Origin: an uncultured delta proteobacterium | GTDB taxonomy: Bacteria > Desulfobacterota > RBG-13-43-22 | Direction of reading: 5' to 3' | DNA: 64,000 nt | Assembly (NCBI GenBank): GCA_963743305.1 | Contig: CAVUPH010000034.1 | Span: 22,200-86,199 of the forward strand | Shown here: in pieces, positions 17,076 to 56,303 of the stretch | Layout: each line of letters starts with the position of its first letter | How positions within the stretch are numbered: position 1 is the stretch's first letter | Program-made: the position numbers and the translations under genes | Notes under the pieces: model-generated | The model's input: only the letters and a program-made list of their open reading frames with translations | Databases searched by the model: none | Told to the model about the DNA's origin: nothing

Positions 17076-19339
17076 CTACCGAAGCCCTGACCTCCCTTTT
17101 TCATTTGATATTCGATGTTGGGCGTTCGATGTTCGATGTTCATCTTCTTCAGTGACCCTCCCCTGGCTTAGCCTTTCCCGCAGGGCGGTGTGGCGTTCCT
17201 GGGTCTTGTTGTTACGGATGCCCATGGCCAGGGCCTTCTTGGTGCCGATGAGGACGATTAAGCGTTTGGCCCGGGTAACGGCGGTGTAGATCAGGTTCCG
17301 CTGCAGCAGAATATAATGCTGGGTCATCACCGGTAGGACGACGGCCGGATATTCACTCCCCTGGGATTTGTGAACGGAGATGGCATAGGCCAGGGTTAGT
17401 TCGTCCAGGTCGCTGAAATCATAGGTCACGAACTGGCCTTCAAAATTTACCACGATTTCCTGCTGCTCCTGATCGATCTTGGAGATCCTCCCCAGGTCCC
17501 CGTTAAAGACTTCCCGGTCGTAGTTATTGCGCACCTGCATCACCTTGTCGCCCACCTTATAAAAACGGGGACCCCGCTGCAGTCCGGTCGTTCCGGGATT
17601 CAAGCCCTCCTGCAGTAAGTGATTCAAATTTTCCGCGCCCACAGCCCCCTTGTACATGGGCGTCAGCACCTGAATCTCTCCAAAGGGATCCAGGGCATAA
17701 CGATCCGGAATTTTTTTTCCCACCAGTTCCAGGATCCAGCGGGCCGCCTTTTCCGGGTCCTCCTGGTGAATAAAATAGAATTCTTGATCTTTTTCCCGCC
17801 TTTCCGCCGGAATCAGCGGCAGCTCTCCCTGGTGGATGCGATGGGCATTGGAGACGATCAGACTGCCTTCGGCCTGGCGGAAAATATGGTCCAATTCCAC
17901 CACCGGGATCCGACTGGGATTCGATCAAATCGGCCAGGACCTGACCCGGGCCGACCGAGGGCAACTGGTAAACGTCTCCCACCAGGATCAGCACCGCCTG
18001 ATCTGGTACGGCCTTGAACAGGTGATACATCAGGACCGTATCGATCATCGAGGCTTCATCGACGATGATCAGCTCCGCTTCCAGGGGATGGCTTCTGTCT
18101 CTGGTAAAGCGTTTTTGGCGGGGGCTGTAGCCCAGGGTGCGATGGATGGTGGCGGCCGGGTAGTCTGTAACCTCGGAGAGCCTTTTGGCCGCCCGTCCGG
18201 TGGGGGCCATCAAAATGCTTTTCAGCTCCGATCGCCGGTAGGCCTCCAGGATCGATCGCACCAGAGTGGTTTTCCCGGTTCCCGGCCCTCCGGTGATGAT
18301 CAGCAGTTTTTGGGTCAGGGCTTTTTCGAAGGCCTCCTGCTGCCGGCCGGCCAGGTGGAGGCCGAGCGATTGCTCCACCCCCGCCGACTGTCGGATCCGA
18401 CCGCCCGGCAGAGGAAGTTTCTGAGACAAAAACTCGTCGATTCGCCGGGCCAGGCCCTCCTCACAATGACTCAAATAGGGCAAGAAAATGAGCGAGGGCC
18501 CTTCCGGATCCGGCCTTATTTGGAGTTCCTGTCGCTTCAGCAAGATCTTTTAGCGCCCGGTCAACCCGATCCGCTTCGACTTTCAGCAGTTCGGCGGCCT
18601 GTCGAACCAGGTCCTTCTCGGGATAGCCGGTATGGCCTTCTTCCGCCTTCTGCTGTAACAGATAGGCTATCCCGGCTTCCACTCTTTGCGGAGCCTCCCT
18701 GGCCATCCCCAGTTTCTCCGCCAGTCGGTCGGCAGTAATGAATCCGACCCCGAAGAGGTCTCCGGCCAGATCAAAGGGATTTTCCTGGATCCGGGTGATG
18801 GCCTCTCTTCCATAATGTTTGAATATCTTGGAAGCCAGTCCGGTGGTAATCCCATGTCCCTGCAAAAAGATCATGATCTGGCGGACGTCTTTTTGCGCTT
18901 CCCAGGACTTTTTAAGCTGGGTAACCCTTTTGGGCCCAATCCCCCCCACCAGGGACAATTGTCCGGGGTTTTTATCGAGAATCTCCAGGGTCTTGAGACC
19001 AAAGCGCGCGACGATCCGTTTAGCCATCTCCGGTCCAATCCCTTTGATCAAACCGGAACCCAGATACTTCTCAATACCAATCTCCGTGGCCGGGGCCAGA
19101 GATTCATAGCTTTCCACCCGCACCTGCAGTCCGTACTTGGGGTGGCGTTCATAGACCCCCTGAATTTTTAATCGTTCCCCCAGACCGACGGACATCAGAT
19201 TGCCGATTACGGTGACCAGTTCCCGCTGGCCTTTCAACTTCAGCTTGGCAATGGTGAAGTGGCTTTCCTGGTCATTGTAGGTGATCCGTTCCACGTGACC
19301 TTCGAGACTGACGCTGTTTTTTTCGGAGGGCTGGGGCAT
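17076..19339 (-). CDS. recD2: ATP-dependent RecD2 DNA helicase, with two apparent frameshifts (about 18545 and 17915)
   Basis: Three consecutive frames give YLGSGLIKGIG, TGGPGTGKTT, APTGRAA, VDEASM, VGDVYQLPSVG, HIFRQA, AYAISVHKSQGSE, YTAVTRA. Confidence 0.92.
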
Positions 19340-34730: not shown

Positions 34731-37700
34731 ATGAAACTTGATAGTAAGAAAGCCATTTGCGGTATCTGCTCGGCCGGGTGCTGGGTAATGGTTCATTATG
34801 ATACCGAGGGGAAAATCGACTCGGTGGGACCTGATGAAGGTTCTCCCTGGGGGAAGATCTGCCGCTTGGGCGAACTGGCCCGGGAGGTCGTCTATTCGCC
34901 CAACCGACTATTATATCCCTTGCGCCGCAAAGGTCCCAAGGGCACTTTTGATTTCGAGCGTATCTCCTGGGATGAAGCCTATGCGACGATCGTCGATAAA
35001 CTGCGAACGATCAAGGCGGAGTCCGGGCCGGAAGCCACGGCCATCTATACCGGAAGCGGAAGTTTCGAGTTATCCCTCTGCGATATTTTCCAGCCGGCCG
35101 GGGTGGCGGTTTCTTCGGCTTCTAGCGTCCTCTTCCCCTTCGGGTCGCCCAACACCTTGGGCGTAGGGGCCCTCTGCTATGTATCCTTCGCCATGATCGC
35201 CCCTCATGTCACCATGGGGGGGATGTTCATCAACATGTTCTCGGATATCGAGCGGGCCAACCTCATCGTCATCTGGGGGAAAAACCCGGCAGCCCACTGC
35301 CCGCCCGATGATTTTATCCAGATCGAACGGGCCCACCGGCGCGGCGCCCGCCTGGTGGTGATCGATCCCCGTCGGACGGCCATGGCCAAGTACCCGAATG
35401 CCGAATGGGTCCCCATTCGCCCCGGTACCGACGGCGCCCTGGCCCTGGGAATGTGCCAGGTGCTGATCGAGGAAGAGCTTTTCGAAGAAGCTTTCGTTAA
35501 AGAGTGGACGATCGGATTCGAGGCCTTTGCCCGATATGTCCAGCACTTTCGACCGGAGGTGGTGGAACATATCACCGGGGTGCCGGCGGCTACCGTTATC
35601 CGCTTGGCCCGGGAGCTCGCCGGGACCAACGGCGTGTCTCCGGTCATGTACAGCGGCCTGGAATACAGCGACGGCTCCGTGCAGGCCATCCGCGCCACCC
35701 TGGTGCTCTGGGCTCTGGCCGGCCAACTGGATGTACCCGGCGGACGCTGTTTCCTGCCGGCCCGGAGCAAGTTTCCCATCAACCGGGAAGGGCTGATCCC
35801 CAATCCGGACATTCGCAAGGCCGCCGGATACAATAACTTCCCGATCTATACCCTCTACCGCGGTGAGTTCCATGCCAACATCCTGCCCCGGGCGGTACTG
35901 GAGCAGGACCCCTACCCTATCCGCCTGCTGATCAGCCTGGGGGCCTCGATTATCAGTTCCTGGCCCCAGTCCGCGGTCTGGCGGAAAACACTGGGGGCCC
36001 TGGACTTTTTGGTCTGCATCGACCGACAATTAACCGCCGATGCTGCCTTCGCCGATATTGTCCTCCCGGCCGCCACCTACTACGAGATCGAATCCTATAT
36101 GGTCTATGGACCCCTTTTCCGAATCCGGGAACGGGTCATTGAACCGCTGGGGGAGGCCCGAAACGACTTCTTTATCCTTTCCGAACTCGCCCGCCGCCTC
36201 GGCTACGGCCACCTCTATCCCCAAAACGAAGCGGAACTTCTGGCCCGAGTCTTGAAAGGCTCGGGCTTCACCCCGGAATCCGTCCGGGCCGCCGGCGGAA
36301 TGGTTCAGGTGCCCACGGTAATGATGGAGTACAAGAAATGGGAAAAAGGGCTGCTGCGCCCGGATGGCCGACCCGGGTTCGACACCCCTTCCGGCAAGTT
36401 CGAAATCGCCTCTTCGCTGCTGGAAGAACATGGCTACGACGCCTTGCCCGTCTATACCGAACCCGGCGAGGGACCGCTGGCCCGGCCGGACTTGGCCCGG
36501 AGTTTTCCCCTGGTCTTCAATTCCGGAGCTCGTTCCAATATTGATTTGCACGGACTACACCAGAGCCTGCCCTCCCTCTCGCGGGAACAACCCGTGCCCA
36601 CGGTGATGATGAACCCCCGGGATGCCGCCGCGCGCGGAATTCAAAACGGAGATCCGGTGAAGCTAGCCACTTTACGGGGATCCATCCCCCTCTATGCTCA
36701 GGTCACCGAGGATATCGTGTCCGGGGCCGTTGAGGTCAGCGGGATGGGGGGCGGGGCCCTTGGCCCGAAAGCCTGGCGCGACGCCTGCGTGAACGACTTG
36801 ACCGATTTGCAGCGCTATGATCCGATCTCCGGTTTTCCGGTGTACAAGGCCCTGCTCTGCGAGGTAGTGAAGAATATCGAGGGCGAAACCGTGACGGTCG
36901 GCGGCCCGGGGGAATACACACCCGATGGATCCCTGGAAACTCCGGCGGTTCCCCACCGCATTTACCTGGACCACAACGCCACCACTCCCCTGGATCCGGA
37001 AGTACAGAAGACCTTGATCGCCTTTTTGGAGTGCTACGGGAACCCGTCCAGCCTCTATGCGGCCGGCAAAGAATCCCGGACCGCCATGGAAACGGCGCGC
37101 CGCGCCATCGCCCTGCTGCTCAACTGCACGGCCCGGCGAGTCCTCTTCACCGGCGGCGGTTCGGAGGCCAACAACCTGGCCATCAAGGGAACGGCCTGGG
37201 CCGCCGGCCGGGCCAAGGACCATATCATCACCTCGGCCAGCGAACATCCCTCGGTGCTCGAACCCTGCCGTGGACTGGAACGGCGAGGTTTCCGGGTCAC
37301 CTATCTTCCGTCCGACCGGGAAGGCCGGGTCCGACCGGAGGACCTCCGCCAGGCCCTGGACGATCGTACCTGCCTGGTGAGCGTCATGCTGGCTAACAAT
37401 GAGACCGGTGTCCTCCAGCCGGTGGAGGAACTGTCCGCCCTGTCCCGGGAGCGGGGGGCGCTCTTCCATTGCGATGCCGTCCAAGCGGTGGGCAAAATCC
37501 CGGTGGACGTGGGGGCACTGGGGGTGGATCTCCTAACCCTCTCGGCCCACAAGTTGCACGGTCCTAAAGGGATGGGGGCGATCTTCGTCCGCCAGGGAGT
37601 CGTCCTCGATCCCTTGGTCAGCGGCGGGCACCAGGAGCAGGGCCTGCGGGCCGGCACGGAAAACGTTCTGGGCATCGCCGGCTTCGGCAAGGCCGCCGAA

Positions 37701-38108
37701 CTGGCCCTGAAACATCTCTCGGATTTGGTATCCATCCGGGAAAAGCGGGATCAACTGGAACGCGGAATCCGGAAAATCCTCCCCCAAGCGTGCATCAATG
37801 GCCATCCTCATCTGCGGCTGCCGAACACCTTGAACGTCACTTTGCCGGGCTTCCGGGGCGAATCGCTGGTCCTGGCCCTCGATCAACGGGGAGTGGCCGT
37901 TTCCTCAGGATCGGCCTGTCGCGCCGGGAACCCGGAACCCTCCCATGTCTTGTTGGCCCTGGGGCTTTCCGAGGAGGAAGCCCACTGCTCCCTGCGTTTT
38001 TCCCTGGGCCGCGAAAATACCCTGGAGGACATTGTCCGAACCCTCTCGATTTTAGAGGATATCATCCGTAATCAACAAGCGGTAGTTCGTTTTGTATCCT
38101 GCAGGTGA
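34731..38108 (+). CDS. Metallopterin-dependent ergothioneine synthase (bis-PGD oxidoreductase module fused to a cysteine desulfurase)
   Basis: CGICSAGC..C [4Fe-4S] motif, RISWDEA, PIRPGTDGALA, ADIVLPA, TPSGKFE; C-terminal IYLDHNATT, ANNETG, DAVQ, SAHK, RAGTEN, SSGSAC; next to an EgtD homolog. Confidence 0.85.
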   Translation: MKLDSKKAICGICSAGCWVMVHYDTEGKIDSVGPDEGSPWGKICRLGELAREVVYSPNRLLYPLRRKGPKGTFDFERISWDEAYATIVDKLRTIKAESGPEATAIYTGSGSFELSLCDIFQPAGVAVSSASSVLFPFGSPNTLGVGALCYVSFAMIAPHVTMGGMFINMFSDIERANLIVIWGKNPAAHCPPDDFIQIERAHRRGARLVVIDPRRTAMAKYPNAEWVPIRPGTDGALALGMCQVLIEEELFEEAFVKEWTIGFEAFARYVQHFRPEVVEHITGVPAATVIRLARELAGTNGVSPVMYSGLEYSDGSVQAIRATLVLWALAGQLDVPGGRCFLPARSKFPINREGLIPNPDIRKAAGYNNFPIYTLYRGEFHANILPRAVLEQDPYPIRLLISLGASIISSWPQSAVWRKTLGALDFLVCIDRQLTADAAFADIVLPAATYYEIESYMVYGPLFRIRERVIEPLGEARNDFFILSELARRLGYGHLYPQNEAELLARVLKGSGFTPESVRAAGGMVQVPTVMMEYKKWEKGLLRPDGRPGFDTPSGKFEIASSLLEEHGYDALPVYTEPGEGPLARPDLARSFPLVFNSGARSNIDLHGLHQSLPSLSREQPVPTVMMNPRDAAARGIQNGDPVKLATLRGSIPLYAQVTEDIVSGAVEVSGMGGGALGPKAWRDACVNDLTDLQRYDPISGFPVYKALLCEVVKNIEGETVTVGGPGEYTPDGSLETPAVPHRIYLDHNATTPLDPEVQKTLIAFLECYGNPSSLYAAGKESRTAMETARRAIALLLNCTARRVLFTGGGSEANNLAIKGTAWAAGRAKDHIITSASEHPSVLEPCRGLERRGFRVTYLPSDREGRVRPEDLRQALDDRTCLVSVMLANNETGVLQPVEELSALSRERGALFHCDAVQAVGKIPVDVGALGVDLLTLSAHKLHGPKGMGAIFVRQGVVLDPLVSGGHQEQGLRAGTENVLGIAGFGKAAELALKHLSDLVSIREKRDQLERGIRKILPQACINGHPHLRLPNTLNVTLPGFRGESLVLALDQRGVAVSSGSACRAGNPEPSHVLLALGLSEEEAHCSLRFSLGRENTLEDIVRTLSILEDIIRNQQAVVRFVSCR

Positions 38109-38136
38109 GGGGAGCTTTATTTAGAAAAATAAGACT

Positions 38137-38214
38137 GAACATCGAACATCGAACGTTCGAATTGAGGTTTATTTATTCGAGGTTGGGCGTTCGATGTTCC
38201 ATGTTGGACGTTCA
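38137..38214. repeat. Heptamer (AACATCG/CGATGTT) tandem arrays in inverted arrangement
   Basis: GAACATCGAACATCGAAC... and ...GTTCGATGTTCCATGTTGGACGTTC; same unit at 17111-17141, 19349-19387 and about 15225. Confidence 0.7.
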
Positions 38215-38237
38215 TTTTATTCGAAAAAGGGGGTTGT

Positions 38238-39254
38238 ATGCCGGTCCAGGACAGGATACTCCGATTAACGGAGAAAGAGGTCTCCGCGGGCAACGGAGCC
38301 TTTGAACGGGATGTCCTCGAGGGGCTGAGCCGGGCGCCCAAATCCCTTCCCAGTAGGTATTTTTATGATGATGAAGGGAGCCGGCTTTTTAAACAGATCA
38401 CGGAATTGCCAGAGTATTATCTCACCCGATGTGAGTCTGAAATTCTCCAAACCTATCGCTCGAAATTGGCGTCCCTGCTCGCCGGCGTTCGTTTCAACCT
38501 GGTGGAGCTGGGGGCCGGGGACGGCAGGAAAACCAAATTATTGTTGGAACATTTTCTCGGCGCGGGGCTGGACTTTCGTTACGTTCCCATCGATATCTGC
38601 GAATCAGCGGTCAACGATTTGATTGGAAATCTCAAACAGCACTGGGCCCATCTTCCCAGCGAAGGACTGGCGGCGGAATATTTCGAAGGGTTGCGCTGGC
38701 TTTCCGAACGGAAGGAACAGCGCAGCCTGGTGCTGTTTCTGGGATCTAATATCGGCAATTTCAGCCAGGACGAAATGCGGGTCTTTCTCCGGAACCTCCG
38801 GGAGGCCCTGAATGAAGGGGACCTGCTCTTAATGGGTTTTGATTTAATCAAATCCGTTCCGCTGCTCGAGAAGGCCTACAATGACTCCCGGGGAATCACG
38901 GCCCAATTCAACCTGAACCTGCTGCGGCGGATCAATCGGGATCTCGGGGGTAATTTCCGGCCCGAGGGCTTTCGATTTTTCAGCCATTTCGACCGCTTCT
39001 CGGGGGCTATCGAGAGTTACCTGATCAGTGAACGAAGGCAGGCCGTGGAGGTGGAACGGCTTAATCGCGCTTTCCATTTTGAAGACGGGGAAGCAATTCA
39101 TACTGAACGTTCTCAAAAGTTTCTGGAATCCGAGGTCGTGCGGCTGGCGCAGGAAACGGGATTCACCGTGGTTCGGCAGATGAAAGATCCGCAGGGATAT
39201 TTTTTGGATTCCCTCTGGCAGGCGGGGGAGCGAAAGAAAGAAGAGGGAAGATAG
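38238..39254 (+). CDS. egtD: L-histidine N-alpha-trimethyltransferase (EgtD/EanA)
   Basis: KSLPSRYFYDDEGSRLF..ITELPEYYLTRCE, ELGAG, FLGSNIGNF, AYNDSRGITAQFNLN, IHTE. Confidence 0.93.
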   Translation: MPVQDRILRLTEKEVSAGNGAFERDVLEGLSRAPKSLPSRYFYDDEGSRLFKQITELPEYYLTRCESEILQTYRSKLASLLAGVRFNLVELGAGDGRKTKLLLEHFLGAGLDFRYVPIDICESAVNDLIGNLKQHWAHLPSEGLAAEYFEGLRWLSERKEQRSLVLFLGSNIGNFSQDEMRVFLRNLREALNEGDLLLMGFDLIKSVPLLEKAYNDSRGITAQFNLNLLRRINRDLGGNFRPEGFRFFSHFDRFSGAIESYLISERRQAVEVERLNRAFHFEDGEAIHTERSQKFLESEVVRLAQETGFTVVRQMKDPQGYFLDSLWQAGERKKEEGR

Positions 39255-46518: not shown

Positions 46519-46987
46519 CTACTTCCCTTTCACGCCAACCGATTTAGATAGGGTTCGAATGTAGGCGATCAGTGAGGTAATATCCTTGATCCTTGAAAAG
46601 ACCGCCCCAGGAAGGCATTTGGTTGGATAGCCCGAGGGCCGCACCCCCCTTTTTGACCACCTCCGTGATCTGGGCATCGGAAAGTTTAGCCATCAGGTTC
46701 GGGTCGGCCAATTTAGCCGGAGGGGTGGTCAAAGTATAGGAATTGAAGCCATCCCCATTCCCGGTGGCCCCGTGGCAAAGGACACAGTAATAGTCAAACA
46801 AGGCCCGACCTTTTTTTTCGTTAAAGGTGAGTTGGCTGTGTTTTTGGGGAAGCAAGAATGTTGGTTTTCCTCCCTGGTTCTGAGGAATGGGGGAAGGAGG
46901 TTTTTGAGTTTCTCCCGGCGAATTCAGAATAAAAAAGATCGAGGCGCTGATCGAAAGTACGAGGGAAAAGTTTCTTATCATTTTCAT
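46519..46987 (-). CDS. Monoheme cytochrome c (apparent frameshift near the 3' end)
   Basis: Signal peptide, CVLCHGATGNGDG, MPSWG; shifted frame gives the typical end DITSLIAYIRTL..*. Confidence 0.85.
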
Positions 46988-47027
46988 TCCTTCAGGTTTT
47001 TATCCCCGGCTATGACCGCTAGCGCCG

Positions 47028-48995
47028 TTACTTGGGAGAGGCCAGAAAGGCTGCCAGGGCCTCGATTTCCTTATCGGTCAGTTTATAGACCGGCTCAACC
47101 GAGCGTTTGACAAAGGCCTTGGGATCCCGCAGATAATAAAGGATCCATTCAAGCCTCAGCCGGTCCCCGACCTTGGTCAGCACCGGTCCGATCAGGCCAC
47201 CCTGTTGATTGATTTGATGACAGGTCTGGCAGGCGTATTTCTTATTGTACAAGTCTTTCCCGGTCTGGATCAGGGCGGCATTATGGCTGGCCGTCTCAGC
47301 GACTCGGCCGGTTAAATTCTCAACCCGGTCATCCACCAGGGTAGTCCCAAAATAGGCATAAAGAGTCTCGATTTCCGAATCCTGAATTTTAAAAAGCGGC
47401 ATGCGTTCCACCAGGATGGGCCGAATGGTGTCGGGGGCCTTCATGAATTTCTGCAACCAGGTTTTCTTGACCCGGCTCCCCTCCTGGGAGAGGTCGGTGG
47501 CCATTTCCCCGCCTTTTCCGTAAATTTGGTGACAGGTAAAACAGCGATACTTGTCCAGTACCTGGCCAAATTTTCCCTGCGGGGCGTAGGTCGAGGGCCG
47601 CTCTCCCAAAGGGAGGGTGTAGGCGGCGGGGACCTCCTGGCCTTTCATTCCCAATAAATAAGTGGTTACAGCTTCGGCTTCCCGGTCGCTGAAGGCGTAA
47701 TCGGGCATCTTTAGCTCTGCTTTGAAGAGCCTGGAGTTTTTCATCTTATTGTAAAGCCAGTTGGGCACGGTGCGATCATGAGGGGTGACCTGGACACGGC
47801 CAAACTCCAGATGGCTGATATGGATCCCCCCGATGGTAGTCAGCTCCACGCCGATCTCGCCGCGATCCTTAACGCCTTCGATCTTGGTATGGCAAGCGGT
47901 GCATCCCTGTTTTTCTATTAATTCTTTCCCTTGGAGCTTATTGCCCCGCTGAACCATTAGGGCCTGGGCGGCGGCCTGACGCTCATCCAAATCCAGGTCG
48001 ATATATTCTCCCGCTAAGAAGTTGACGATTTTGAGGATTTCCTGATCGGAAAAACCGTAGATCGGCATCCGTGAAGCGGCCCAAAGCTCATGGGGATTTT
48101 TGATAATCCGGCTCAGTCGTTCCGGAACCATCTTAGAGGAAATCTTGCTGAGTTCAGGTGCCAGGGTCCCCCCTTTGCCTTCAACGGAATGGCAACTGAC
48201 ACAACGGGAGTCCTTGAATAATTTTTTGCCTTCCTCGGTGGATCCGCCCACTTTGCCCTCCGGGGGCTTTTCGCCTTGGAAGAGAAAGGCGGACACATCC
48301 GCTGCCTGCTGGGAAGAAAATTTCGGGTTGGGCATCGTGGTCTTGGGAAGATAGCTTTTAGGGTTCAGGACCCAGCGATAGAGCCAATCGGATTTTACCC
48401 ACTGACCGATCCGATCCAGCGGCGGCCCGACGAAGGTCCTTTCTTTTCCCTTGACCAGGTGGCAGCCCCGGCAACCGTAATCCTTAAAGATGGACCGACC
48501 TTGGGCCAATACCGGTGCCTGATCCCGAATAGTCTCGCCGTGACAAAGACCGCAGGCATTTTCCATAAAGTCCTGATGGTAGATGGCCTGATTCCAATTC
48601 TCCACCGGACCGTGAGCATCCTTCAAAGGGGTGGCCAATCCTTGTCCCCCATGGCAGACGGTGCAGCCGAATTTTTCGAAATCGTGCCCACCCACGTCGG
48701 GATGGGAGCGGAAAGGCTGAAGGGCATTTTGAAACCGCGGGTCTTCCAGCCCGAGATGACAAGTCTCACAGCGATCCGTCCTTTTTAGTTTTTCGATCCA
48801 TCGCTGCCGAACCCCAAATTGAAAGTTAGGGTCTTTACCTTTCTGGGTGACCTTTTGGAGGAGGAGGGACTTAAATTGTTTCTGATAGGTTAGATAAGAG
48901 GGGTTGGAATTTTTCCAAAGCTGTCCGATAAAAAGGAGCAAGACCAATAAAGCCAAAAAGGGAAAGATCCTTTGAAATATATCTTTCATTTCCAC
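47028..48995 (-). CDS. Membrane-anchored octaheme cytochrome c
   Basis: N-terminal TM; 8 CxxCH (CETCH, CTVCH, CGLCH, CRGCH, CVSCH, CTACH, CFTCH, CQTCH); repeated class-I-like domains with P.L..G and MP. Confidence 0.92.
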   Translation of the reverse strand: MEMKDIFQRIFPFLALLVLLLFIGQLWKNSNPSYLTYQKQFKSLLLQKVTQKGKDPNFQFGVRQRWIEKLKRTDRCETCHLGLEDPRFQNALQPFRSHPDVGGHDFEKFGCTVCHGGQGLATPLKDAHGPVENWNQAIYHQDFMENACGLCHGETIRDQAPVLAQGRSIFKDYGCRGCHLVKGKERTFVGPPLDRIGQWVKSDWLYRWVLNPKSYLPKTTMPNPKFSSQQAADVSAFLFQGEKPPEGKVGGSTEEGKKLFKDSRCVSCHSVEGKGGTLAPELSKISSKMVPERLSRIIKNPHELWAASRMPIYGFSDQEILKIVNFLAGEYIDLDLDERQAAAQALMVQRGNKLQGKELIEKQGCTACHTKIEGVKDRGEIGVELTTIGGIHISHLEFGRVQVTPHDRTVPNWLYNKMKNSRLFKAELKMPDYAFSDREAEAVTTYLLGMKGQEVPAAYTLPLGERPSTYAPQGKFGQVLDKYRCFTCHQIYGKGGEMATDLSQEGSRVKKTWLQKFMKAPDTIRPILVERMPLFKIQDSEIETLYAYFGTTLVDDRVENLTGRVAETASHNAALIQTGKDLYNKKYACQTCHQINQQGGLIGPVLTKVGDRLRLEWILYYLRDPKAFVKRSVEPVYKLTDKEIEALAAFLASPK

Positions 48996-49019
48996 CGCCT
49001 TTTTAAAGGCCGAAAATAC

Positions 49020-50159
49020 TCAATGCGTGGGCCAGGACTGCCAGGGCCAGTAAAGGACCCAGCCCGGTCCCCGCAAAAACTGCCCGATGACAATCAGCCC
49101 CAGGTACACCGTGACGACCGCGGTGAAAATGATATTGGCCTTTCGGCGGCTGGGGTGAAACCAGACCCCGATTCCTTCACGGCCCCGATCCAGATAGGGG
49201 ATCAGGATGATCAGAATAATCATGACGTTGGGAACCAGGACACCGAAAAAGAAGGGGGCGCCCCAGGACAGGAGTTCTTGCATACCCACCAGAAACCAAG
49301 GGGCCTTGACCGGACTGGGTGTCACCGAGGGGTTGGCCCCTTCTTCCAAAGGGGCGTTGAACAGGAGCGAGATCGCCATAACCAGGGCCAGGATCAAGAG
49401 AAATTTGCTGAGCTCCCGGACGATGATATCCTGCCACACGGAAGATCCCTGCTCCGGTCCCTGGGCCGTTGGAGCCGTCTCCCCTTCTTTAATATCCAAA
49501 TGTCCACCCCAGACGGCCCAGGCTAAGAAATCGTCCTTCCGAATCCGCCAGAAATGGACCCCCATGACCAATCCGATAACCAGAGGGATGATTTTAACGT
49601 GCAGGCCGTAGGCATGGACCAAAGCGTTTTGACCGACCTCGTTTCCACCCAGGATCAGATACTTGAGCTTTTCTCCGATAACCGGCGCCGAGGTGACCAC
49701 ATTGGAGGTAATGGTCATGGCCCAGTAGCCTTTTTGGTCCCAAGGCAGGATATAACCGGTTATGGCCATGACCGCCGTACAAAGGAAAAGGACCAGGCCG
49801 GTCACCCAATTGAATTCCCTGGGTTCCCGATATTCAGCCGTGTAAAAAACCCGACTCATGTGCAAAAAGACCGAGATAAGCATTAGGTAAGCGGCAAAAC
49901 GATGCATGTTGCGGAAGATCAGGCCGAAGCTGGCTACATATTCCAGATCTTTGATTCCCTGGTAGGCCCTTTCCGTGTCCGGGGTGTAATAGAACATCAA
50001 CAGGATCCCGGTAATCGTCAGGATGATAAAGAGATAAAAGTTGATCAGGCCCAGACCGAGGATCCTGGTCCTCAGCCATTGATTGACCGGAATCTCTTTT
50101 CGGACGATGGATTTCCAAAAACGATTCTGGAAGAGGAGATCCCTGGCATCGATTCTCAT
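49020..50159 (-). CDS. Cytochrome b (b6 N-terminal plus subunit-IV-like domain)
   Basis: TGILLMFYY, RNMHR..LHMSRVF, NWVTG, TGYILPWDQ..YWA, GLHV..VHFWRIRKD, KAPWF. Confidence 0.93.
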   Translation of the reverse strand: MRIDARDLLFQNRFWKSIVRKEIPVNQWLRTRILGLGLINFYLFIILTITGILLMFYYTPDTERAYQGIKDLEYVASFGLIFRNMHRFAAYLMLISVFLHMSRVFYTAEYREPREFNWVTGLVLFLCTAVMAITGYILPWDQKGYWAMTITSNVVTSAPVIGEKLKYLILGGNEVGQNALVHAYGLHVKIIPLVIGLVMGVHFWRIRKDDFLAWAVWGGHLDIKEGETAPTAQGPEQGSSVWQDIIVRELSKFLLILALVMAISLLFNAPLEEGANPSVTPSPVKAPWFLVGMQELLSWGAPFFFGVLVPNVMIILIILIPYLDRGREGIGVWFHPSRRKANIIFTAVVTVYLGLIVIGQFLRGPGWVLYWPWQSWPTH

Positions 50160-50198
50160 GGGATGGATTCTCCTTGGAAAGGATCCACGGCCTGATCC

Positions 50199-50657
50199 TT
50201 AGACCGAGAGAGTGCGTTGAAAAGGAACCGTCCGGCTTTCATCTACCAGGAGCCTGCCGTCCGCGGTTAAGGTGACTTCGTACCAGGCCAGGGGATTTTG
50301 AGCCGGTCCGGTGGTAACCTGCCCCCGGGCATTGAACAGGCTGCCGTGACAGGGACACTCAAAGCGATTGCGCTCCGGGGCCCATTGGACGGAACAGCCT
50401 AAATGGGTGCAAACGGCCGAGACGACCTTAATGAGATTTCCCTGACGAAGGACAAAGATTCTTTTCTCATCAATATAGTCCACGCCTTCGGGATAATCCT
50501 CGGGTTTGCCGATTTTAAAAGTCAGAGGAGGCTCGTAGAGTACATTAGGAATCACATAGCGGACGGAGGCGGCCGTGAGGCCGGCAAAGCTCCCCAAGGT
50601 CGCTACCCAGCCGATTTGATTTAAGATTTCCCGTCTGGTGTACTGCCGTGCGGTCAT
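50199..50657 (-). CDS. Rieske [2Fe-2S] protein
   Basis: Tat-like TRRE, CTHLGC and CPCHGS. Confidence 0.95.
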   Translation of the reverse strand: MTARQYTRREILNQIGWVATLGSFAGLTAASVRYVIPNVLYEPPLTFKIGKPEDYPEGVDYIDEKRIFVLRQGNLIKVVSAVCTHLGCSVQWAPERNRFECPCHGSLFNARGQVTTGPAQNPLAWYEVTLTADGRLLVDESRTVPFQRTLSV

Positions 50658-50700
50658 AATTATTCCTCCAAACCCCGCAGTCTGGTCTGAGGGCTCGGTG

Positions 50701-50823
50701 CTATCGCTTGATCAGGGCAACCAGAATTTCGGCCAGGACCAGCAAGAACACCCCGAGGGCCCCCCCGCCGATGACGACGATCAACATTTCTTTGAAGAGA
50801 CTATAGTCTTCGTGAGCGTTCAT
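50701..50823 (-). CDS. 40-aa single-TM small protein (absent from the ORF track)
   Basis: Manual translation MNAHEDYSLFKEMLIVVIGGGALGVFLLVLAEILVALIKR*; ATG 3 nt after the upstream stop, AGAGGA upstream. Confidence 0.65.
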   Translation of the reverse strand: MNAHEDYSLFKEMLIVVIGGGALGVFLLVLAEILVALIKR

Positions 50824-50826
50824 CCG

Positions 50827-51619
50827 TTAGGGTTTCCTCTGGGGGATTTTTACCACCGTCGGCTTCTCCGGAATGTCTTGGATCGTCAGCTTACCCGAAA
50901 GGACTTCAAAGTCGGGTTTTTCCCGAAGCCGATGAACCCAACCGGTTTTGAAGTCCGGCCACCAATAAAAACGGTAACTCCCGGGGGGGACTTTTTCAAA
51001 GGTATACCGTCCTTTCGAATCGGTTTGCGTGGCCAGAAAAATCCCCTGGTCGGAGACGGTGGATTCTTTCACTTCTTCCGAGAGCATTTTCTTGACGGAA
51101 GCCAGTGAGACACCCGTATAATTCTCGAGCTCGATCCTCACCTTTCCGTTAGCCATTGGCTTCCCCTGCCATTGAATAATTCCTTGCACCCGGCCCATTT
51201 CCTCCAGCAAGAGCTGTTCGTGAAGGGCCGTAGTCTTTGAAGGCGCTGGACCTTCCCCCGGCCTTCTCTCCAGGCCGGGACCCGGAGTTGGTGAAACATC
51301 GACCTTCCGGCTTCCTTCTATTATTCTTTCAAGCCGTTCGATCCTTTTTTGAAGTTCATCGATTCTCTCTAGAAGCTGTGCCTCCCTTTTTCCCGCCAGA
51401 GGGTTTCCCTGCTCGCTTTTCTCGGCGGGTTGGATCGTTTTCAGGGGGACCTGAACCTTCCCCCCCGTTTCGGTTTCCCCCCCCAGCGTGCTGCCTGGTA
51501 TCACATACTCCTTCAATTTGATCGACTCGGCCGAGGAGGAAGACAACGGCAATCCGCTCATCATTAATACCAGCCCCAGGCGAATGACCAGTTGCCCGGC
51601 CTTTCCTCCTGCTAGTCAT
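50827..51619 (-). CDS. Secreted protein with a coiled coil and a carboxypeptidase-regulatory-like beta-sandwich
   Basis: ORF 50827-51564 (TQTDSKGRYTFEKVPPGSY); signal peptide probably starts at ATG 51619 across a frameshift near 51596. Confidence 0.65.
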
Positions 51620-51644
51620 ACTTAAGCTCATGAAAGCCCTGGCC

Positions 51645-52298
51645 TTATCTCTGTTTCAATTTATCCTTTTCAAAATCAACGGTAACGGTCTTCCCTTCCC
51701 CCACGACCACTTCCTTGGAGGTCTCTTGGAGCTTCTCATGCCAGACCTTGAGTTTATAGGTTCCCGGGGGGACATTTTTGATCTCGTATTTCCCGGAATT
51801 GTCGGTGAGGGTGAAGTAGGGGTTTTGTAAGACGATGATATAACCGAGCATTTCCGGATGGACATTACAGAGGAGGGGGACCTCCCCTAGATTATCAAAC
51901 TTGACGGTCTTTTTGACGCCCGTGCCGTAGAGACCCAGATTAAAAGTGGTGGCGGAGCCGGGAGGGGCAAAGACATTGTGGGCCACGGTATCGTCATTGG
52001 TAAAGTCGACCGTGGTTCCTTTGAGAATGGGCAAAAGATGGGGGGTGAAGACCATGCCCTTCTGACCCATGAAGGCCTCCTTTTTGGGAGGGGAAAATTC
52101 ACCCTTGACGTGATCCACGTATACCAGGGCCGGGTACCGTTTCACCCAAGGGGTGTTGACCACCCCTTTAATGAAACCTCCCGATGGATGGCCTTTAGTC
52201 TCTTGGGCCCGGATCGGCAGGGCCGGTAAGCAAACCGCCAGGGCGATGATTCCGGCGGCCAATAAACGCACTCTTTTGCTTTGGAACAGGTTAGCCAT
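51645..52298 (-). CDS. Periplasmic cupredoxin plus carboxypeptidase-regulatory-like domain protein
   Basis: Signal peptide; type-1 Cu ligand pattern AHNV ... CNVHPEM; C-terminal NVPPGTYKLKVWHE. Confidence 0.8.
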   Translation of the reverse strand: MANLFQSKRVRLLAAGIIALAVCLPALPIRAQETKGHPSGGFIKGVVNTPWVKRYPALVYVDHVKGEFSPPKKEAFMGQKGMVFTPHLLPILKGTTVDFTNDDTVAHNVFAPPGSATTFNLGLYGTGVKKTVKFDNLGEVPLLCNVHPEMLGYIIVLQNPYFTLTDNSGKYEIKNVPPGTYKLKVWHEKLQETSKEVVVGEGKTVTVDFEKDKLKQR

Positions 52299-52382
52299 GA
52301 GATTCCTTTCTTTACAAATTCAATTTTCTAATTTCCCCGCTACCGCGAGGTATTTCAGTCTTCAGCAGAAGGTCCTCGAACG

Positions 52383-53741
52383 CTAAAAAGAAAAATCAAG
52401 CTGAAAGGACATCATATCATCCGCATGCAGCTTTTGGCCTGCCGCCTCTCTGGGCTGGTTGGTCGTGTAGTACAAGTATTCCAGGTTGAGTTTGATATTG
52501 GCGCGCAATAAAAAGGCTATACCGCCAATAATTCGGGCTTGATCTTGGTCGCTGGCGTCTACGGTCAGCGCCTCGAATCGGGCATACGGGATCAACCAGG
52601 GAAATATAAAATAGTTTCCCTCAACAAACCAGAGATTCTTGGTTGTACTCGTCGTAGATGGTTCGTCGAGAAGCGAAATTCTCCGTATCCCTGAATGGGG
52701 GAATATTTTTGCGCCCGTGCTTGTATCCGTCGGAGGGGTAACAGGCTCATCCGCGTTTTGCCTGATATATCCTCCTCCCAGGGAAAGATCTTTGTAGTTC
52801 ACCCGGGCATCCGCTCCGAATCGCGTAGCCCTGTCGGCATTCGCGCCGGTGTACCCCTGATAGCCGAAGAGACCGAAAAGGATGGAGTCGTCCCGCCAAA
52901 AACCGGACGGCGAGGTGGTCAGCCCGCCCTCTTCGGATTTCAACCCGGTACCATCAAAACCCAACCCGCCGATTTTGAAAGACAGACCACCGTAATAATC
53001 CAAAGAACTGCTGTCCGTGTTGGCCTGCACCAGGCCGGCATAGTAGCGCCAACGACTCCCGAATCCATTGACCTGGAAACCGGGTTGAGGCTGCAGAGCA
53101 AGCACATCCTGGTACTGGTAGCTGTTGATGGTAAAATTATTTTCATCCCGGGAGTTGGGTAAGGCGATCGATTGCCGGCCCACATTCCCGGCTTTAATGT
53201 TCAGGTGGTGCTTGCCGAGAATTCCACTGAAAAGGTCCGACCACATCAACCAGGCCTGCCCCTCCGTGGTGTTAGATCCGGAATCGAAAATAAAAGCCAG
53301 GTTCATAAAGAAAGAGAAGTCCTTCCCAAAGGTGCCGGCCCCCAGCAGGTCCACCTCTCCAGGGAAGTTAAACTGGGTATTCGAGGAGTTTCCATTGGCG
53401 TCACCGGTGTTGACATTGACGCCTCCGGTGGACCGGATGGATAGGGGCGGCATCCCGGGTATGTCGGAGGGCCAGATGGAATTGGGAAATAGCTTTTTGT
53501 AGGGCTCCGCCCCCAGACTGACCGGCTGATCCTTGACATAAAGTTCATCGGTGTCGGGCAGCCTGTAGCCGAGCAACCGGAAGGCCTCTCCCACGGCCGA
53601 CAGTTTCGGCCAGACGGTATGACAGGTCATACAGGCCGTTTTGTATTTTCGGGCGAAAGCCGGAATGGCCGCCGCCTCTTTCGGGAGAAATGAAACCCAA
53701 AAAACCGCCAAGACGATGCTTCCCAGAAGTACCCTTTTCAT
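52383..53741 (-). CDS. Cyc2-like monoheme cytochrome c-porin fusion
   Basis: Signal peptide then IPAFARKYKTACMTCHTVWPKLSAVGEAFRLLGY; beta-strand-rich remainder ending FQLDFSF. Confidence 0.82.
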   Translation of the reverse strand: MKRVLLGSIVLAVFWVSFLPKEAAAIPAFARKYKTACMTCHTVWPKLSAVGEAFRLLGYRLPDTDELYVKDQPVSLGAEPYKKLFPNSIWPSDIPGMPPLSIRSTGGVNVNTGDANGNSSNTQFNFPGEVDLLGAGTFGKDFSFFMNLAFIFDSGSNTTEGQAWLMWSDLFSGILGKHHLNIKAGNVGRQSIALPNSRDENNFTINSYQYQDVLALQPQPGFQVNGFGSRWRYYAGLVQANTDSSSLDYYGGLSFKIGGLGFDGTGLKSEEGGLTTSPSGFWRDDSILFGLFGYQGYTGANADRATRFGADARVNYKDLSLGGGYIRQNADEPVTPPTDTSTGAKIFPHSGIRRISLLDEPSTTSTTKNLWFVEGNYFIFPWLIPYARFEALTVDASDQDQARIIGGIAFLLRANIKLNLEYLYYTTNQPREAAGQKLHADDMMSFQLDFSF

Positions 53742-53863: not shown

Positions 53864-53906
53864 AAAATAGAAAACCCCAGATCTCCTCCGAGATTTGGGG
53901 TTTTTC
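53864..53906 (-). terminator. Intrinsic terminator inside the 5' leader of the Cyc2-like operon
   Basis: Minus strand AAAACCCCAAATCTC-GGAG-GAGATCTGGGGTTTT followed by CTATTTT. Confidence 0.7.
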
Positions 53907-53972: not shown

Positions 53973-54001
53973 ATTATCAAGACCTCCGGGGGAAGTGTCA
54001 A
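53973..54001 (-). promoter_or_regulatory. Sigma70-like promoter of the Cyc2-like operon
   Basis: TTGACA-N17-GATAAT on the minus strand; adjacent palindrome TCAATGA-N4-TCATTGA at 53955-53972. Confidence 0.65.
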
Positions 54002-55217: not shown

Positions 55218-55387
55218 TTCCGGATAGAGAAACCACGGATCACGGAAAAGAAATGGCATAAGCAACTGGAAATGGTCTTTTAAGGGCAGAAGCACTCAAG
55301 CGAATAATTCTGAGGAACCCGGTGCGGGAATTCTGCACGCCGGGGTCTGTGAGGGGGCAGTCGGGCAACTGGCTGTCCTATCTCGAT
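55218..55387 (+). mobile_element. Group II intron 3' fragment (maturase tail, domains V and VI)
   Basis: DV GAACCCGGTGCGGGAATTCTGCACGCCGGGGTC (55315-55347), DVI GGGGGCAGTCG-GCAA-CTGGCTGTCCTATCTC-like hairpin, terminal AT; upstream ..EKPRITEKKWHKQLEMVF*. Confidence 0.85.
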
Positions 55388-55394
55388 CCCCTTT

Positions 55395-56080
55395 ACGACG
55401 CAGTCCACGGTAAAGGCGAACATACCGGCCACCGTGTCTCCACAATGGGCCACGGTATCGGCCTCCAAAAATCCCGGCCGGGTTTCATCCCACTGGTTGG
55501 TTTTCAAGGGGATTTGTTTCCGCAGGAGGGTACCCGGCTTGGTCGTAGCTCGGCCGCGTTTTTTATATTGGATCCGGACCGGTTTTAGCAATCAATCCAG
55601 GGTGGCCGTCGAGATGGTCTGCAGGGTCTTCCGGACCTGGGGAGGCAGTTCGCCGAAGGTGGGACCGTAACTGGGAAGCCATATAGGCAACAAGGCTTTC
55701 AACCGGGAAGAGCAGGGCTGATTAGCCGTCAGCCAAATTTTTCTTAGGACTTTTAAGAGCGCTGGGGAGTCATAGACCGGCTTGGGGCCTCGCCGCTTAG
55801 GTTGGGGCTTGGTAAACCGTTTAAAGCCTCTGAGCAGGCGAATAGCGTGCTTTCGATGATAATGGGTGGCGGAACAGAATTCATCCAGAATGAAGTGCTT
55901 CTGGGCCTTGGAGGCCTTTTTATACCGTTTAACGATGGCCTCTAGGTATTCATTTTTCGATCGGGGACTCATAATTTTAACCTCCTACCGGGCGTTTTCA
56001 CCTGGTAACATTAATTATGAGTCAACGATCCCTTGGTTTTCACCTCCTTGGTAACATTTAATATGATGCAATTCGGGGCA
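55395..56080 (-). mobile_element. Truncated IS (DDE/integrase-core transposase, ISNCY-like) with its left end
   Basis: RYKKASK..ILDEF..YHRKHAIRLL, ISTATLD, KPGTLL, PGFLEADTVAHCG; frameshift at 55592; subterminal repeats GGTAACATT..ATGA at 56004 and 56050. Confidence 0.8.

Positions 56081-56227: not shown

Positions 56228-56303
<76 letters not shown>

Follow-up and report, generated by a model that had tools for sequence, protein, structure and literature searches.

A gene cluster for a Cyc2-like cytochrome-porin, a cupredoxin and a Rieske/cytochrome b complex: a probable conduit between extracellular iron and the quinone pool of an uncultured delta proteobacterium

Introduction

By what route might electrons pass between dissolved iron outside a cell and the quinone pool of its membrane? 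The question is raised by eight genes on the minus strand of a 64,000-nucleotide stretch of DNA from an uncultured delta proteobacterium (contig CAVUPH010000034.1, positions 22,200 to 86,199; the whole stretch is called the window here, and positions are counted from its first letter). In order, the genes encode a Cyc2-like protein, a cupredoxin, an accessory protein, a 40-amino acid (aa) transmembrane peptide, a Rieske protein, a cytochrome b, an octahaem cytochrome c and a monohaem cytochrome c (Table 1). An earlier note, made from the letters alone, had read them as a candidate electron conduit across the envelope. Cyc2 is a common marker for microbial iron oxidation, yet where homologues occur in anaerobes, or in phyla in which no iron metabolism is known, they still carry the label 'hypothetical' or an ambiguous one.

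We propose that this operon probably encodes a wire, widespread and so far undescribed, that connects dissolved extracellular iron with the quinone pool of the membrane. In one large Cyc2 subfamily a dedicated cupredoxin is almost always present, often followed by a b6f-like Rieske/cytochrome b complex and an octahaem cytochrome, and such neighbours give ambiguous Cyc2 homologues a testable pathway from outer membrane to quinone pool. Neighbourhood rules of this kind could sharpen the iron-cycle annotation of metagenomes. The gene content, motifs, folds and co-conservation are presented first, as observed.

A predicted Cyc2 family cytochrome-porin

The N-terminal string of the first protein that the earlier note had pointed out is present as AAAIPAFARKYKTACMTCHTVWPKLSAVGEAFRLLGY and resolves into the motif line AIPAFARKY-KTA-CMTCH-TVW-PKL, with five residues between PAFAR and the first Cys and a single CxxCH (residue 37) in the whole protein. 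The preceding segment is hydrophobic and ends in AAA before IPAFAR, where a cleavage site was placed by eye. R31, K32, Y33, C37, C40, H41 and P45 are invariant in an alignment with 58 relatives, which were picked for full length among the 120 matches listed. According to the accessible parts of Keffer 2021, Cyc2 is recognised by a signal peptide with a single CXXCH, by AXPXFAR[Q/K][T/Y] upstream of it, by PXL four residues after it, and by a length of at least 365 residues with a 16-strand porin. All four of these sequence and fold features are found in the window protein, the porin in its AlphaFold model.

The AlphaFold2 model built from the 58-row alignment (predicted local distance difference test, pLDDT, 71.7; predicted template modelling score, pTM, 0.73) has exactly 16 strands over residues 100-451, with the haem domain (residues 26-97) at low confidence. 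Foldseek searches of the PDB with this model returned 16-strand porins, namely PorB (1e-11), OmpF, Omp32 and OprP (2o4v, 1.3e-8), of which OprP gave the top query template modelling score (0.52) and is also the structure cited for Cyc2 by Keffer 2021. A comparison of the sequence profile with the sequences of solved structures gave nothing meaningful (best expect value, E, 0.066), and the ESM Atlas held hypothetical clusters only, one of them with Porin_O_P on 12% of its members. The family comprises 1106 matches at E <= 0.001 among 7999 candidates scored; representatives at 50% identity number 1756 at E <= 1e-3, 490 at 1e-10 and 186 at 1e-30, and every name given to the family members at source is 'hypothetical protein'.

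Judged by sequence and modelled fold, the first protein is a member of the Cyc2 family. The published defining motif is thus present where the earlier note had seen it, and the barrel modelling that it proposed as a check gave 16 strands and matches to 16-strand porins. The protein would probably fall in cluster 3 of Cyc2; the Cyc2-like protein of a Thermodesulfovibrionia locus (L021) is 48% identical to it.

The cupredoxin and conservation of the locus across phyla

The second protein is, by sequence and model, a type-1 (blue) copper protein, with copper binding predicted. When the window protein is aligned with 37 of 74 homologues (38 sequences), the four ligands H107, C144, H147 and M150 show no variation, and the short amicyanin-type loop C-x2-H-x2-M is kept in all 74. 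The copper domain forms an insert within a sandwich of the CarboxypepD_reg (transthyretin-like) type. Structural relatives of the AlphaFold2 model (pLDDT 90.2) are the NirK cupredoxin extension, a Nitrosopumilus cupredoxin, amicyanin, pseudoazurin and plastocyanin, the last three found with Foldseek.

Conservation of the neighbourhood was followed in the best 80 loci from 295 relatives (one genome per species scanned), a set biased to the window's Cyc2 subfamily. Neighbouring genes were called by tblastn (E <= 1e-5), and phylum names are the labels on the genome records. A cupredoxin gene adjoins the Cyc2 gene in 74/80 loci; five of the remaining six loci end with the contig, at most 315 base pairs (bp) past the Cyc2 match, and the only true absence is in L076. 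Further matches were found for the accessory gene in 30/80 loci, for the monohaem gene in 32/80 and for the 40-aa peptide, at the same position, in 11/80 (46-88% identity).

Among the 49 long loci, defined by at least 7.5 kb downstream, 25 carry the Rieske, cytochrome b and octahaem genes downstream in the same order, in six named phyla and an unclassified metagenome-assembled genome (MAG). The Rieske/b module is present in 13/17 long loci of Desulfobacterota, 7/8 of Acidobacteriota, 1/4 of Bacteroidota, 1/2 of the unclassified genomes and 1/1 each of Nitrospirota, Ignavibacteriota and Hydrogenedentota. It occurs in 0/5 Planctomycetota loci, 0/4 'Deltaproteobacteria' groundwater MAGs and 0/1 each of Nitrospinota, Schekmanbacteria and Gemmatimonadota; the Zixibacteria loci (0/3) hold the Cyc2-cupredoxin pair with the octahaem and monohaem genes, Rieske/b being missing within the stretch examined. 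The genes are kept together across many phyla; this and the other refuting conditions named in the earlier note, as far as they could be examined, came out in favour of its reading. Of the three phyla that the note named for a synteny search, Desulfobacterota and Nitrospirota have long loci with the module and Planctomycetota has none. In a 401-genome sample of the window's phylum, 29 genomes have a Cyc2-like match at E <= 1e-10, and in the window's own family the count is 7/13.

A tree of 75 Cyc2-like proteins (the window and 74 loci, six having been omitted for a match shorter than 330 residues or a broken frame) intermixes phyla, and the Rieske/b link requires at least 11 gains or losses on it. 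The Rieske/b labels were equally clustered in 0/500 label shuffles. The modules have thus been shuffled, though not randomly.

Three placements in this material suggest mis-binning or recent transfer. Identical Cyc2-like proteins occur in L073 and L077, from bins labelled Gemmatimonadales and Vicinamibacteria; on the tree, L011 (Acidobacteriota) is nested in Desulfobacterota, and L065 (Desulfobacterales) is paired with L081 (Ignavibacteriae).

The Rieske/cytochrome b complex and its cytochromes

The Rieske and cytochrome b proteins together show the features of a b6f-like complex: both Rieske boxes, four haem-b histidines at b6 spacing, and a subunit-IV part with a Qo motif. The histidines are His86/His100 and His187/His202, with 13 and 14 residues between them as in b6. 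The best solved relative of the cytochrome b is cytochrome b6 (2e-40), and its NCBIfam scores for ExtP (223.6, cut-off 290) and ExtQ (68.6, cut-off 150) are both below threshold. The N-terminal 85 residues of the window cytochrome b contain no Cys, although the conserved Cys that holds haem cn covalently in b6 would be expected there. The Qo motif, APWF at 286, is a variant near the APWY/GPWF types described by Kao and Hunte.

For the Rieske protein the best solved relatives are 9rk4 (8.6e-25) and 9rk3 (4.6e-21), which outrank PetC of b6f. Their identifiers were confirmed: they are Kuste4569 and Kustd1480, which serve as Rieske subunits in the two unusual complexes of anammox bacteria and have measured potentials of +303 and +335 mV according to the anammox Rieske paper. 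The Ser of the CPCHGS box is kept in 32/33 homologues.

The octahaem cytochrome has four close-set haems followed by four class-I cytochrome c domains (SoxX-type domain x4). It scores 107.7 bits with NCBIfam ExtS (cut-off 100) as a sum over three repeated domains, and has only weak solved relatives (actinobacterial QcrC). From its sequence we suggest that it stands in for cytochrome f/c1 and is anchored rather than cleaved. The 40-aa peptide is possibly a small subunit of the Rieske/b complex. Pfam and NCBIfam matched the cupredoxin, Rieske, cytochrome b/b6 and class-I cytochrome c domains in the cluster proteins and had no matching model for the Cyc2-like protein or the 40-aa peptide.

These results agree with what the earlier note had read from the translations. 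The open reading frame (ORF) calls return its eight tightly packed minus-strand genes (spacing 3-84 bp), the His/Cys/His/Met set and modelled cupredoxin fold bear out its periplasmic type-1 copper protein, and domains and CxxCH counts match its Rieske, cytochrome b, eight-haem and monohaem genes.

Other modules joined to the Cyc2-cupredoxin pair

In other loci, several further modules are joined to the pair. A protein of 610-630 aa with Fer4_20, Pyr_redox_2 and two 4Fe-4S motifs is encoded just before the Rieske gene in 17/80 loci, and in 14/33 of those with Rieske and cytochrome b. The gene preceding it is that for the cupredoxin or the accessory protein, and the Rieske gene comes next (L021:5621-7483, L024:12177-14045, L059:3111-4946, L064:11985-13889 and 13 more). 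In its domains the protein corresponds to the subunit with which the anammox Rieske/b complexes act as NAD(P) oxidoreductase. The window's clade has no such flavoprotein and carries the 40-aa peptide in its place. ORF and Pfam results gave no anammox-type flavoprotein gene in the window's cluster, and the flavoprotein homologues of the host genome are located elsewhere, none of them beside a Rieske/b locus.

Rieske/b is replaced in L031:12605-19290 (Planctomycetota) by a set resembling ACIII or Qrc, where the Cyc2 gene and a double cupredoxin are followed by genes for a cytochrome c and a Band-7 protein, then by those for a c7-type cytochrome, for molybdopterin-family, 4Fe-4S and NrfD proteins, and for SCO1. 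L060:4292-9687 has Cyc2, cupredoxin and accessory-like genes, then a 664-aa protein with a cytochrome bd subunit-I (CydA-like) domain; three cytochromes of the c type are part of the same array, as is an EB_dh (haem b) domain. In L046:12113-15446 the pair is followed by proteins with the CuA-type motif C-x3-C-x3-H-x2-M, one of them fused to cytochrome c, and COX2/Cupredoxin_1-type matches occupy the same place in L048:3775-6720 and L033:12588-15579; a Cys-rich polytopic membrane protein stands beside the CuA-motif proteins in L046 and L048 (with a Fer4_5 match in L048). An oxidase operon was considered for L033, L046 and L048 and rejected, as there is no adjoining COX1 and the CuA-motif proteins are small. 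Two-component sensor kinases follow the pair in L036, L043 and L047, and copper-efflux genes in L048 and L075. The common theme suggested by these arrangements is a Cyc2-cupredoxin front end with interchangeable inner-membrane redox modules.

The host genome

The genome to which the window belongs (G000; 4.9 Mb, 90% complete, 5.7% contaminated) carries acetyl-CoA synthase, 2-oxoacid:ferredoxin oxidoreductase, NrfAH, and Qrc- and Tmc-like cytochromes, together with 16 ORFs with at least three CxxCH motifs, some of them cytochromes resembling ExtKL and ExtM. In this 90% complete genome neither DsrA nor NarG reached the cut-off and RuBisCO gave no match, and sulfate reduction, nitrate respiration and RuBisCO-based autotrophy were rejected on these grounds. 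Its oxidases are a cytochrome bd and a divergent cbb3-like oxidase (CcoN/CcoO-like) with CcoS and a Cu-ATPase. The earlier note's description of the host as apparently anaerobic needs qualifying: acetyl-CoA synthase is present and DsrA and NarG are lacking above cut-off, but both oxidases and NrfAH are encoded as well. Two more Rieske/b loci (C37:55892-59073 and C32:58421-64221) bring the number of such complexes in this one organism to three; one of them has a heptahaem cytochrome, and the other, the Ext-like locus on C32, has ExtM-like 11- and 10-haem cytochromes.

Proposed conduit and the direction of electron flow

As to the cellular locations, the order of carriers, the partner at each step, the direction and the substrate, we infer the following. 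The Cyc2 family haem-porin in the outer membrane would trade electrons with something dissolved outside the cell, Fe2+/Fe3+ being the likeliest couple, and the periplasmic amicyanin-like cupredoxin would be its constant partner. The monohaem cytochrome c and the anchored octahaem cytochrome would link the cupredoxin to the b6f-like, anammox-type Rieske/cytochrome b complex, through which the chain would join the menaquinone pool.

Our preferred reading, held tentatively and with a probability of roughly 45%, is inward flow, in which Fe(II) is taken up into a high-potential chain. The Cyc2 haem would oxidise Fe(II) and pass the electrons to a high-potential periplasmic pool of cupredoxin and cytochrome c, which may drain into the cbb3-like haem-copper oxidase, whose genes lie elsewhere. 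The Rieske/b complex would feed the same pool from menaquinol, or reverse on proton-motive force for reductant. By analogy, such a layout would match the Acidithiobacillus proposal of Cyc2, rusticyanin and bc1, and would extend its logic to neutral, low-oxygen habitats (peat, groundwater and sediments). The carriers look high-potential by comparison with known proteins, given the Met axial copper ligand and amicyanin loop, the class-I c domains and the anammox-like Rieske protein with its Ser. In the accessible literature Fe(II) oxidation has been shown for every Cyc2 whose assay is described there, namely A. ferrooxidans Cyc2, Leptospirillum Cyt572, Cyc2 PV-1 and, after expression in E. coli, a cluster-3 Thermodesulfovibrionia Cyc2; characterisation of a Ghiorsea Cyc2 has been published too. 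COX1-family genes exceed the cut-off in 29/31 full-cluster genomes, compared with 142/401 in the phylum sample, and such a gene is present in 8/8 Desulfobacterota carriers outside the window's family, a count that suggests a possible electron sink.

Several points weigh against Fe(II) uptake. The ccoN model matches 9/29 Cyc2-like genomes and 61/372 others, which is a weak link, and within the window's family an oxidase is equally common without the cluster (ccoN 5/8 with and 3/6 without; COX1 6/8 and 4/6), the COX1 model taking in NO reductases and related genomes not being independent. A specific link between the cluster and the cbb3 oxidase was dropped on these ccoN counts. The operon itself contains no terminal oxidase gene, and the host looks anaerobic, to judge from acetyl-CoA synthase, 2-oxoacid:ferredoxin oxidoreductase and no RuBisCO match in a genome that is 90% complete. 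Lifting electrons from about +300 mV to menaquinone would be costly, and the nearest named family of the b and c subunits is, in NCBIfam, a Geobacter operon named for selenite/tellurite reduction.

The same conduit run in reverse is a rather unlikely alternative in our estimate. Menaquinol would then be oxidised through a proton-motive Q cycle and its electrons exported by way of the octahaem cytochrome, the monohaem cytochrome c, the cupredoxin and the Cyc2 haem to dissolved, complexed Fe(III) or Mn(III), an energy-conserving route for an anaerobe living by metal or humic reduction. Read in this way, the operon forms an unbroken linear path from quinol to outer membrane in which no terminal enzyme is missing, and the host, with its 16 multihaem ORFs, its acetyl-CoA synthase and neither DsrA nor NarG above cut-off, fits such a lifestyle. 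Among named families, Geobacter ExtP/ExtQ/ExtS come closest to the cytochrome b and c subunits, and other lineages pair Cyc2-cupredoxin with modules that plausibly bind quinol (the ACIII/Qrc-like set of L031, with ACIII-auracyanin as a precedent, the CydA-like protein of L060 and the Cys-rich proteins of L046 and L048). Two further points for export come from the accessible literature: cluster-3 Cyc2 is flagged as a possible reductase by FeGenie, and the NAD(P) oxidoreductase-like subunit found in 14/33 loci belongs to a published bifurcation model that requires a high-potential sink. However, a chain at +200 to +300 mV would be unable to reduce ordinary Fe(III) oxides. We know of no export conduit with a cupredoxin, the known ones being low-potential multihaem cytochromes, and this too counts against export. 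The presence of a haem-copper oxidase-family gene in 29/31 carrier genomes implies that the hosts are not acceptor-poor strict anaerobes, and no Cyc2 is reported as a reductase in the accessible parts of the Cyc2- and FeGenie-related literature surveyed.

It is less probable still, and in our view improbable, that two units merely share an operon, the Rieske/b complex with its octahaem and monohaem cytochromes being an ordinary quinol:cytochrome c reductase for an oxidase or nitrite reductase and the Cyc2-cupredoxin pair having a task of its own, for instance in the sensing or handling of iron or copper in the periplasm or outside the cell. Such a separation would agree with the 24/49 long loci in which the pair occurs without any Rieske/b genes, with the sensor kinases and copper-efflux genes that follow it in the five loci named above, and with the repeated gain or loss of the Rieske/b link on the Cyc2 tree. 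Nevertheless, the pair precedes Rieske/b at short distances in each of six named phyla, loci without Rieske/b usually have a different redox membrane module in its place, and general respiration could be covered by the two other Rieske/b loci of the host.

Frameshifts in the accessory and monohaem genes

Two of the eight genes are interrupted. The accessory gene has an extra A near 51604 (51600-51606), reading AAA where L002 and L003 read AA in the DNA alignment, so that the ORF as called (50827-51564, 245 aa) is short of its true start, the ATG at 51631. The earlier note had called this protein secreted; a signal peptide is indeed restored once the one-nucleotide frameshift is read through, but the ORF as called has none. 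Homologues start with a signal peptide in 26 of the 30 loci with a match, and the CarboxypepD_reg match of the window protein is weak (22.8 bits, below the Pfam cut-off). In the monohaem gene an extra A near 46587 (46585-46589; CAAG for an aligned AAG or CAG), relative to L002, L003 and L006, alters the C-terminus of the ORF as called (46544-46987, 147 aa). Its true end is 46519, which is the left boundary that had been given for the cluster.

A RecD2-like helicase gene elsewhere in the window (17557-19339) is likewise split into two overlapping ORFs, with HHH_RecD2/OB_YrrC in one part and AAA_19/AAA_30 in the other, which suggests another assembly frameshift.

On sequence comparison the two extra-A frameshifts are probably assembly errors, since single A's have been added beside A's, the frames are otherwise intact, the RecD2-like gene is also split and the six other genes are unbroken. 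That the cluster is decaying and non-functional in the window's own genome, as two frameshifted genes out of eight relative to three relatives and a pseudogene in a genome of the same family might indicate, is very unlikely beside the single-A nature of both changes, the second split gene in the window and the 95-99% identity of the remaining six genes to L002 without breaks. By its sequence, the cluster is decaying in some relatives: that same-family genome, G286, holds a fragmented Cyc2-like pseudogene with four stop codons (C51:788-1428).

Comparison with known systems

The A. ferrooxidans rus operon encodes Cyc2 together with a cupredoxin. The A. ferrooxidans rus/petI system, composed of Cyc2, rusticyanin, CycA1 and bc1, resembles the window's cluster in having an outer-membrane Cyc2, a periplasmic cupredoxin and a Rieske/b complex in one pathway. 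It differs in that the window has everything in one operon, without oxidase genes, with an amicyanin-like cupredoxin (C-x2-H-x2-M) embedded in a CarboxypepD_reg domain and a b6f-like complex with an octahaem cytochrome for c1, in a neutral-habitat, anaerobe-type Desulfobacterota MAG. The Geobacter ext cluster lies beside an outer-membrane conduit, and that of G. sulfurreducens shares with the window a cytochrome b of the b6 type, a protein resembling subunit IV and a class-I cytochrome c with several domains. Here, in contrast, the ExtP and ExtQ scores are sub-cut-off and ExtS clears its threshold only by way of repeated domains, the cluster lacks multihaem porin-cytochrome genes, and a separate Ext-like Rieske/b locus exists on C32 of the host.

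Described members of the Cyc2 family, such as Leptospirillum Cyt572 and that of 'Ca. Mariimomonas ferrooxydans', share the signal peptide, the single CxxCH, PxFAR[Q/K][T/Y], PxL and the 16-strand porin, whereas cupredoxin or Rieske/b neighbours are not mentioned in the accessible parts of the Cyc2 literature surveyed. The anammox complexes Kuste4569-4574 and Kustd1480-1485 also have a b6-like cytochrome b with a subunit-IV-like part and a multihaem c, reported as a hexa- or octahaem protein, in place of cytochrome f. Unlike them, the window's cluster has a fused cytochrome b/subunit IV, no NAD(P) oxidoreductase gene, no haem-cn Cys and no HAO-like partner, and it is linked to Cyc2 and a cupredoxin, which the accessible anammox texts do not mention for those complexes.

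Nearest in concept, as far as its accessible description goes, is the MtrAB-PetAB cluster of Zixibacteria RBG-1, where a porin-cytochrome, mono- and multihaem cytochromes and Rieske/b stand in one cluster that its authors read as serving iron oxidation or reduction. The outer part there is MtrAB (a decahaem cytochrome and a separate porin) and not a fused monohaem Cyc2, and no cupredoxin is placed in that cluster, a blue copper protein appearing only in the figure legend. No description of a Cyc2-cupredoxin-Rieske/b cluster was found in the accessible full-text literature, which largely leaves out subscription journals and took in work on Cyc2, FeGenie, Mariimomonas, MBNT15/Deferrimicrobium and anammox Rieske proteins, a 2023 network study and a 2026 review. 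The earlier note did not recognise the arrangement as a characterised system, and this literature agrees with it, but the Rieske/b part has relatives in the anammox complexes and, by NCBIfam, in Geobacter ExtP/ExtQ/ExtS. The proposed conduit would couple Cyc2 with a cupredoxin of its own and a Rieske/b complex of the anammox type; its genes are widespread in uncultured lineages and connect Cyc2 to those poorly understood complexes.

A broader and distinctly speculative possibility is that Cyc2-cupredoxin forms the outer half of modular outside-to-quinone conduits transferred over at least 12 phyla, with Fe(III)/Fe(II) as the high-potential bifurcation branch where an NAD(P) arm is present. If so, Fe(III)/Fe(II), via cupredoxin and Cyc2, would drive a quinol-based bifurcation making NAD(P)H in the flavoprotein-bearing lineages. 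It would supply the 'favourable partner reaction' still lacking in the anammox literature for Kustd1480-1485, and the window's version would be the same machine minus its NAD(P) arm.

Locus layout and transcription signals

Features of the locus are collected in Table 1. With table-11 ORFs and a script, the intergenic gaps in the cluster (46519-53741) were found to be 84, 80, 3, 43, 39, 24 and 40 bp.

Table 1. Features of the cluster and its upstream region, with positions in the window.
Feature	Position	Strand	Description
Promoter candidate, sigma-70-like, TTGACA-17-GATAAT	53973..54001	-	About 230 bp upstream of Cyc2-like start; consensus scan, 11/12 positions
Cyc2-like fused monohaem cytochrome-porin	52383..53741	-	452 aa; signal peptide to about residue 25; predicted 16-strand barrel about 100-451, terminal Phe
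Periplasmic type-1 copper protein (predicted)	51645..52298	-	217 aa; amicyanin-like domain; ligands H107, C144, H147, M150
Accessory secreted protein (predicted)	50827..51631	-	Signal peptide, coiled-coil, Pro-rich linker, C-terminal CarboxypepD_reg-like domain; broken by extra A
Single-helix membrane peptide	50701..50823	-	40 aa; immediately upstream of Rieske gene; one hydrophobic stretch
Rieske 2Fe-2S subunit	50199..50657	-	152 aa; twin-arginine N-terminus TRREIL; boxes CTHLGC, CPCHGSLF
Cytochrome b	49020..50159	-	379 aa; b6-type four-helix N-half fused to subunit-IV-like C-half
Octahaem cytochrome c	47028..48995	-	655 aa; N-terminal hydrophobic anchor; CxxCH at 76, 111, 148, 175, 265, 365, 485, 589
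Monohaem class-I cytochrome c	46519..46987	-	Signal peptide; 3' end shifted by extra A near 46587

The promoter candidate is a lead only, as the region has seven promoter-like sites compared with 6.3 in shuffles. Terminator-like sites in the cluster number 18 (13.2 +/- 3.5 in shuffles), all weak-stemmed and within genes, and the scan thus holds nothing that would speak against one transcript for the eight genes. Between the promoter-like site and the Cyc2-like start lies a hairpin (53870-53905) with a 16-bp stem and T or A runs on both strands, possibly a terminator acting in both directions or a structure with a regulatory role.

Downstream, the cluster is followed by an unrelated xanthine-dehydrogenase-family gene set, and upstream by two ORFs without a Pfam match and a tRNA-Arg gene. 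The upstream pair, adjoining and in different frames beside tRNA-Arg(TCT) (55280-55972, 56228-56303), resembles one broken gene. Elsewhere in the window (34731-39254), a 1125-aa ORF joins a molybdopterin oxidoreductase to a class-V aminotransferase and is followed by a histidine-specific methyltransferase (Methyltransf_33, EgtD type).

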